Positions 57,476-57,798 of a DNA stretch of 64,000 nt are shown piece by piece. Under the pieces are notes generated by a model, which was not told the origin of the DNA, did not search any database, and saw only the letters and a list, made by a program, of their open reading frames with translations. Within the stretch, counting starts at the first letter, position 1, and each line of letters starts with the position of its first letter. The DNA is from Escherichia coli. Lineage in GTDB: Bacteria; Pseudomonadota; Gammaproteobacteria; Enterobacterales; Enterobacteriaceae. The stretch is from the NCBI RefSeq assembly GCF_003018255.1, contig NZ_CP027440.1; one strand, 5' to 3'. Made by a program: the position numbers and the translations under genes.

Positions 57476-57560
57476 TGGTGGTGGGGGAAGGATTCGAACC
57501 TTCGAAGTCGATGACGGCAGATTTACAGTCTGCTCCCTTTGGCCGCTCGGGAACCCCACC
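57476..57560 (-). tRNA. tyrV: tRNA-Tyr (anticodon GUA), copy 1
   Basis: 85-nt sequence whose reverse complement is GGTGGGGTTCCCGAGCGGCCAAAGGGAGCAGACTGTAAATCTGCCGTCATCGACTTCGAAGGTTCGAATCCTTCCCCCACCACCA with encoded CCA. The gene-name assignment among copies is arbitrary. Confidence 0.95.
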
Positions 57561-57594
57561 AGGGGTAATTCAAATTTTGAGGTAATGCTTGAGA

Positions 57595-57679
57595 TGGTGG
57601 TGGGGGAAGGATTCGAACCTTCGAAGTCGATGACGGCAGATTTACAGTCTGCTCCCTTTGGCCGCTCGGGAACCCCACC
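57595..57679 (-). tRNA. tRNA-Tyr (anticodon GUA), copy 2
   Basis: Identical 85-nt tRNA-Tyr sequence, 119 nt from copy 1. Confidence 0.95.
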
Positions 57680-57713
57680 AGGGGTAATTCAAATTTTGAG
57701 GTAATGCTTGAGA

Positions 57714-57798
57714 TGGTGGTGGGGGAAGGATTCGAACCTTCGAAGTCGATGACGGCAGATTTACAGTCTGCTCCCTTTGGCCGCTCGGGAACCCCACC
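57714..57798 (-). tRNA. tyrT: tRNA-Tyr (anticodon GUA), copy 3 (promoter-proximal)
   Basis: Identical 85-nt tRNA-Tyr sequence, 119 nt from copy 2, directly downstream of the tyrT promoter. Confidence 0.95.

Follow-up and report, generated by a model that had tools for sequence, protein, structure and literature searches.

The window (the whole 64,000-nt stretch of Escherichia coli DNA that was analysed) carries the classical tyrT operon in a three-gene allele, in which the additional 119-bp unit, made up of one tRNA gene and one 34-nt spacer, most likely arose by misaligned pairing between tRNA repeats. We give this reading a probability of about 0.8. The three-copy allele is an ordinary, low-frequency copy-number variant that is already known: we call it ordinary because it is catalogued in public genomes, and because such alleles appear to arise again and again by misaligned recombination between repeats. 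The tyrT operon is among the best-studied tRNA operons, and suppressor genetics had made it clear by the 1970s that its tandem genes are unstable.

Anatomy of the array and its K-12 counterparts

ARAGORN identified exactly three tRNA genes in the window, all of them tRNA-Tyr genes (anticodon GTA) on the minus strand, and the Rfam tRNA model matched all three. Read in the RNA sense on that strand, the promoter-proximal copy (57714..57798; 53.4 bits with the Rfam model) is followed by a first spacer (57680..57713), the second copy (57595..57679), a second spacer (57561..57594) and the distal copy (57476..57560), for a whole array of 323 bp. The three 85-nt genes have the same sequence as one another and as K-12 tyrT and tyrV. 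Both 34-nt spacers likewise share one sequence (TCTCAAGCATTACCTCAAAATTTGAATTACCCCT in the RNA sense), which corresponds exactly to the 34 nt found directly before K-12 tyrV. Units are arranged head to tail and in exact register: Tandem Repeats Finder reported a period of 119 with 2.8 copies and 99% matches at 57474-57808, and a repeat search returned two 119-nt units at 100% identity plus a third register at 82%. Because the 119-nt units are identical and in register, chance is ruled out as an explanation for the array. The initial annotation had described three identical genes with identical spacers at 57476-57798, and ARAGORN, Rfam, the repeat finders and the alignment all bear out both the positions and the description. 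All three copies encode CCA, which is then followed by TC. The trailer of the distal copy starts with TCACTTTCAAAAG, as it does after K-12 tyrV. Directly before the tRNA copies, the 5' context is ATTACCCCT; for the first copy it is ATTACCCCGT.

The sigma-70 promoter of tyrT was located at 57849..57876 on the minus strand, with a -35 box TTTACA, a 16-nt spacer, a -10 box TATGAT and then a GC-rich discriminator (GCGCCCCGC). Its activity is predicted from 10 of 12 matches in a promoter scan. Only 2 positions differ from K-12 MG1655 over the 162 nt upstream of the first tRNA, and the promoter is intact, so that the array does follow the tyrT promoter, as had been stated initially. The 5' leader of the primary transcript would extend over 57799..57841, between the -10 hexamer and the first tRNA, if its extent and start site are placed from the position of the promoter; this stretch has 1 mismatch with K-12.

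On the distal side lies a single 178-nt RtT repeat unit (57298..57475, minus strand), recognized by alignment to the K-12 units and by a full-length match to Rfam RF00391 (57298-57429, minus strand, 125.2 bits, E = 4e-27). Its transcript-sense end, AATCCTTCCTCCACCACCA, reproduces the last 19 nt of the tRNA with one mismatch. The single distal 178-bp unit had been correctly recognized in the initial annotation; the claim that it begins with a degenerate tRNA 3' end holds when the plus strand is read, but in the transcript the unit ends with it. A tpr-like open reading frame of 29 aa was found by translation inside the unit (57319..57408, minus strand, coordinates computed from the frame), and its product differs from K-12 Tpr by one residue. 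According to the feature annotation of the matches and of the loci that were fetched, the array is flanked by narI (plus strand, left) and purU (minus strand, right). An imperfect palindromic, REP-like sequence (GTCGGATGCGCTTCGCTTATCCGACCTACAGG...) is present at 57170-57240, between the narI terminator hairpin (57132-57153) and the RtT unit; in K-12, the ychS ORF and two further RtT units are found in this interval.

The K-12 tyrT operon is composed of tyrT-tyrV-rttR-tpr (b1231-b1229, NC_000913.3 1287066-1287622). In MG1655, 294 bp separate the start of tyrT from that of tyrV, and three RtT units come after the pair. The two copies and about three 178-bp repeats initially ascribed to K-12 are therefore present, though the spacing of 294 bp instead of 119 bp had been missed. 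The 209-nt K-12 spacer is made up of an RtT-like unit of 175 nt, diverged in sequence and terminating with the 3' terminal 19 nt of the tRNA, and, after it, of the exact 34-nt spacer of the window. The wider K-12 spacing of 294 bp is thus explained by a diverged RtT-like unit between tyrT and tyrV; one such unit, flanked by a 19-nt repeat, is what the K-12 arrangement has and the compact one lacks. The 119-bp unit of the window is the compact form.

In K-12, a single promoter gives rise to a polycistronic precursor that extends into the RtT region or past it before transcription stops; RNase P and enzymes acting on the 3' side free the individual tRNAs. In the window, all three genes would be transcribed from the single promoter as one precursor. 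All three copies would be expected to mature normally, because the 5' and 3' processing context of each copy is that of the two-copy allele. The tRNA-Tyr gene dosage at the locus would then go from two to three, and a real rise in the level of tRNA-Tyr may be the effect.

Copy number among complete genomes

A census of tyrT arrays was carried out on 5,426 complete E. coli genomes, using megablast with E-value limits so strict that only a single alignment spanning the required units could pass. Such cut-offs were used because the joining of overlapping pieces brings two-copy genomes to 100% query coverage as well; counting units by query coverage was rejected for the same reason. Copy numbers of 2, 3, 4 and 5 were found at 119-bp spacing. 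At least two copies were present in 2,908 genomes (54%) and at least three in 42 (0.8%), with 'tRNA-Tyr (x3)' annotated in every match listed, while two genomes had at least four, namely strain D10 with four and isolate LR14 with five. An array 100% identical to the 323 nt of the window was present in nine complete genomes. The K-12-type pair (tRNA, 209 nt, tRNA) was encountered in about 1,919 genomes (35%) and the K-12-type triple in 12, a 13th listed match, MB51, being partial with two tRNAs. About 600 genomes (11%) belonged to neither main class. In some genomes a single tRNA-Tyr lay under the match, for instance in the ST131 strain EC958.

The majority E. coli allele is thus the pair of 119-bp units, and the 294-bp spacing of K-12 is the second common allele, while at least three tRNA-Tyr genes at the tyrT locus are found in about 1% of complete genomes. 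That the compact pair predominates, and that RefSeq already contains annotated alleles with three, four and five copies, had escaped the initial annotation. Its view that three copies are unusual agrees with the genome comparison run here: at least three units at 119-bp spacing, seen in only 42 of the 5,426 genomes, are not routine. Since the K-12 arrangement is not the species norm (54% compact, about 35% K-12 type, about 1% with at least three copies), copy number at this locus should not be assumed, either in models of codon usage or translation that make use of tRNA gene dosage, or in the engineering of tyrT/tyrV for genetic-code expansion. This is the modest practical value of the census, and the allele otherwise offers little beyond book-keeping.

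Assemblies of K-12 laboratory strains do not agree with one another. Three genes at a 294-bp period are seen in those of TOP10 (NZ_CP080620.1), XL1-Blue, XL10-Gold and Origami2(DE3), and two in those of DH10B (NC_010473.1) and MG1655. This disagreement reflects either a real expansion during laboratory propagation or a disagreement between assemblies, and it is relevant to tyrT/tyrV engineering.

Plasmid-borne arrays were also considered. Twelve PLSDB records matched, with two copies each; all were non-mobilizable and several were 4.8-4.9 Mb long, and they were set aside as irrelevant. Records H170, H171 and H173 (4.8-4.9 Mb), together with others, appear to be chromosomes, or pieces of chromosomes, that were given a plasmid label.

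The count of three in the window could itself be an artefact, a possibility also raised in the initial annotation, if the true number of units were two and an assembler or polisher had added a 119-bp repeat. With 100% identity among the three units, nothing within the sequence anchors the count, and the DH10B and TOP10 assemblies have two and three copies, respectively, though the strains are near-isogenic. Moreover, the genome of the window lies outside the complete-genome set, in which its best 24-kb match has 99.2% identity and two copies, and it may therefore be a draft assembly. However, an array of 323 bp fits within single long reads and within many pairs of short reads, identical tandem repeats are usually collapsed by assemblers rather than expanded, and a structure of at least three copies is present in 42 independent complete genomes, on several haplotypes. 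Taken together, these points make an artefact unlikely.

The search was extended to other species in GTDB, with one genome per species and a pattern of three exact copies of the E. coli tRNA-Tyr separated by 20-50-nt spacers, a design that passes over diverged arrays. Citrobacter sp. MGH106 was the sole match. Its array, which shows that the pattern also exists outside E. coli, comprises three intact copies set apart by 35-nt spacers of identical sequence, and a tRNA::RtT chimera as its fourth member. Fixation of three copies in related species was rejected as a possibility, this Citrobacter being the only match among the species representatives: three copies are not fixed in any well-sampled relative, at least as regards arrays whose tRNA sequence is exactly that of E. 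coli.

Origin of the third unit

To the right of the array, the two-copy strain JNE23-011 (NZ_AP045067.1) shows 0 differences to the window for 3,000 nt, and on the left it shows none in the adjoining stretch of about 1,935 nt. Its tRNA and spacer are the same as those of the window and it has one 119-bp unit fewer, which is the only difference between the two across roughly 4.9 kb around the array. Because these 4.9 kb are otherwise identical, the most parsimonious history would be that a two-copy allele like that of JNE23-011 recently gained one unit in the lineage of the window. Such a gain is more likely than a loss in JNE23-011, the one basis for this preference being that two copies are the majority state. 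Farther out in the 3-kb left flank, 36 SNPs distinguish the window from JNE23-011, and all of them fall in narH (about 54476-55541). From this distribution, we place a recombination mosaic boundary inside narH.

Rather than being generated in the recent ancestry of the strain, the array could stem from a different three-copy lineage, either by inheritance or by import through homologous recombination. The nine complete genomes whose 323-nt array is identical to that of the window would be compatible with such a transfer, as would the mosaic nature of the locus, with its SNPs clustered in narH. Two of these nine genomes, 20Ec-P-124 and D10, were fetched and used to assess this possibility. Theirs is the closest fetched three-copy haplotype, yet 6 sites of its right flank depart from the window, as do about 30 positions within the 620 nt that adjoin the array on the left; a two-copy genome is identical to the window throughout that stretch. 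Inheritance from a 20Ec-P-124-type haplotype is therefore disfavoured, since the flanks of the window are matched perfectly by the two-copy JNE23-011 and not by that haplotype. Overall, we regard an origin in another three-copy lineage as improbable.

Eight of the 42 loci with at least three units were fetched, one of them with a chimeric distal unit, and the number of independent events that they yield is a lower bound. Four spacer alleles were present among the eight arrays. Within each array the spacers were identical, with the exception of the promoter-proximal spacer in two arrays. The 3-kb flanks defined at least five haplotypes besides that of the window. Copy number also varied within haplotypes, as 20Ec-P-124 (three copies) and D10 (four) have identical 6-kb flanks, and so do EC1515 (three copies) and LR14 (five). 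This pattern of spacers and flanks is as expected if every expansion duplicates the single spacer of the strain in which it occurs, and it argues for expansions that would be repeated, independent and fairly frequent. An origin by unequal crossing-over, proposed in the initial annotation, is thus supported both by the two-copy allele with identical flanks and by expansions on different haplotypes, each with its own uniform spacers.

The preferred history, a recent gain by misaligned recombination, would start from the common allele with two tRNA-Tyr genes 119 bp apart. The 85-nt tRNA repeats would pair out of register during replication or repair, and either an unequal exchange between sister chromosomes or replication slippage would resolve the mispairing; both routes are compatible with the data.

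Several of the arrays had features of their own. In LR14 (five copies) and NCTC10444, the promoter-proximal spacer ends in CCCGT or CCCCGT like the leader, while the other spacers end in CCCCT, which hints at an exchange between leader and spacers. In DSM 103246, the promoter-proximal copy of a three-copy array (positions 3239-3323 of the fetched locus) has a C10T substitution in the D stem, the other two copies being wild type; this may indicate that a redundant copy is under less constraint. The O18:H1 strain CFSAN067215, which represents one of the flank haplotypes counted above, has an array with a 33-nt spacer and a 118-bp period. To the left of its RtT (positions 1-2806 of the fetched locus), genes for an F390 synthetase-related protein, a PAP2 phosphatase, a member of the sterol desaturase family and an acyl-CoA desaturase replace narH, narJ and narI.

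The distal array member of E. coli AREA_C483 (positions 2915-3067 of the fetched locus) is a tRNA::RtT chimera, annotated by PGAP as a 153-nt 'tRNA-Tyr'. It consists of the 5' part of the tRNA up to GGTTCGA in the T arm, then the RtT interior, and then the tRNA 3' end. The chimera of Citrobacter sp. MGH106 (about 6950-7100 of its locus) has the same tRNA::RtT junction. Such a junction, shared by two genera, suggests an exchange between the tRNA and the RtT repeat that would be either recurrent or old and shared. The structure of the chimera also fits an RtT unit that is a derivative of tRNA-Tyr with an insertion.

A last question is whether the third copy is kept by selection for more tRNA-Tyr, as a response to translational demand or to losses caused by anticodon nucleases, or reflects near-neutral instability of the repeats. 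Expansions recur on several haplotypes and reach four and five copies, which would suit the first possibility. It may also draw on experimental Pseudomonas populations in which tandem duplications that raise tRNA gene dosage are reported to have been selected (PMC7661048, PMC10954465). Against it, the frequency is low (0.8% of genomes), no large clade in the sample is fixed for three copies, and the scan of GTDB species representatives yielded just one further species with at least three exact copies and short spacers. The C10T substitution in the D stem of one DSM 103246 copy likewise hints at relaxed constraint. Selective maintenance is thus very unlikely in our view. A stronger version would make the tyrT array a fast-switching dosage locus, ranging from 1 to 5 copies, with the three-copy state transiently selected in some niches and adaptive in the present strain. 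Were it true, the niches could be, for example, those with tRNA-Tyr-cleaving toxins or with high translational demand, and the extra gene would be adaptive rather than neutral; we consider this highly doubtful.

Comparison with known systems

Searches of the literature library that was available returned nothing specific on natural copy-number variation of tyrT. A mobilome preprint mentions the tyrT region only for its raised coverage, and an eLife paper on redundancy has no mention of the tyr genes.

The closest relative of the array is the K-12 tyrT operon, with which it shares the tRNA sequence, the promoter and leader, the 34 nt before the second gene, an RtT unit with its tpr ORF, and the position between narI and purU. 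In contrast to K-12, which has two genes at 294 bp and three distal RtT units, the window has three genes at 119 bp, no internal RtT-like unit, and one distal RtT unit. Among alleles already in RefSeq, 20Ec-P-124 (NZ_AP017610.1, three copies), D10 (NZ_CP010157.1, four) and LR14 (NZ_CM188746.1, five) occupy the same locus with the same period, have internally uniform spacers and carry a single RtT unit. Over its 323 nt, the 20Ec-P-124 array matches that of the window at 100% identity. These alleles differ from the window in the haplotype of their flanks and, in some of the strains, in the spacer allele or the copy number.

Duplicate tyrosine tRNA genes and their unequal recombination were reportedly described by Russell and colleagues in 1970, through the segregation of su3+ doublets and singlets on phi80 transducing phages. 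The 178-bp repeat is said to have been reported by Egan and Landy in 1978, and the RtT RNA by Bösl and Kersten in 1991. In the classical tyrT doublet, as in our reading of the window, the number of tandem tRNA-Tyr genes changes by misaligned recombination between repeats. The classical work, however, is reported to have dealt with changes from two copies to one in K-12, under laboratory selection for suppressor activity, whereas the window holds a natural allele that would have gone from two to three, with a shorter period.

A more distant parallel is provided by Pseudomonas fluorescens SBW25, in which tandem duplications alter tRNA gene dosage, as described in two papers (PMC7661048, PMC10954465). 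Within-species variation in tRNA gene copy number by tandem duplication is common to both systems. The SBW25 duplications, which the titles of these papers describe as large-scale, are reported to have been selected because they made up for the deletion of a tRNA gene, whereas the duplication in the window concerns a 119-bp unit inside an existing array.
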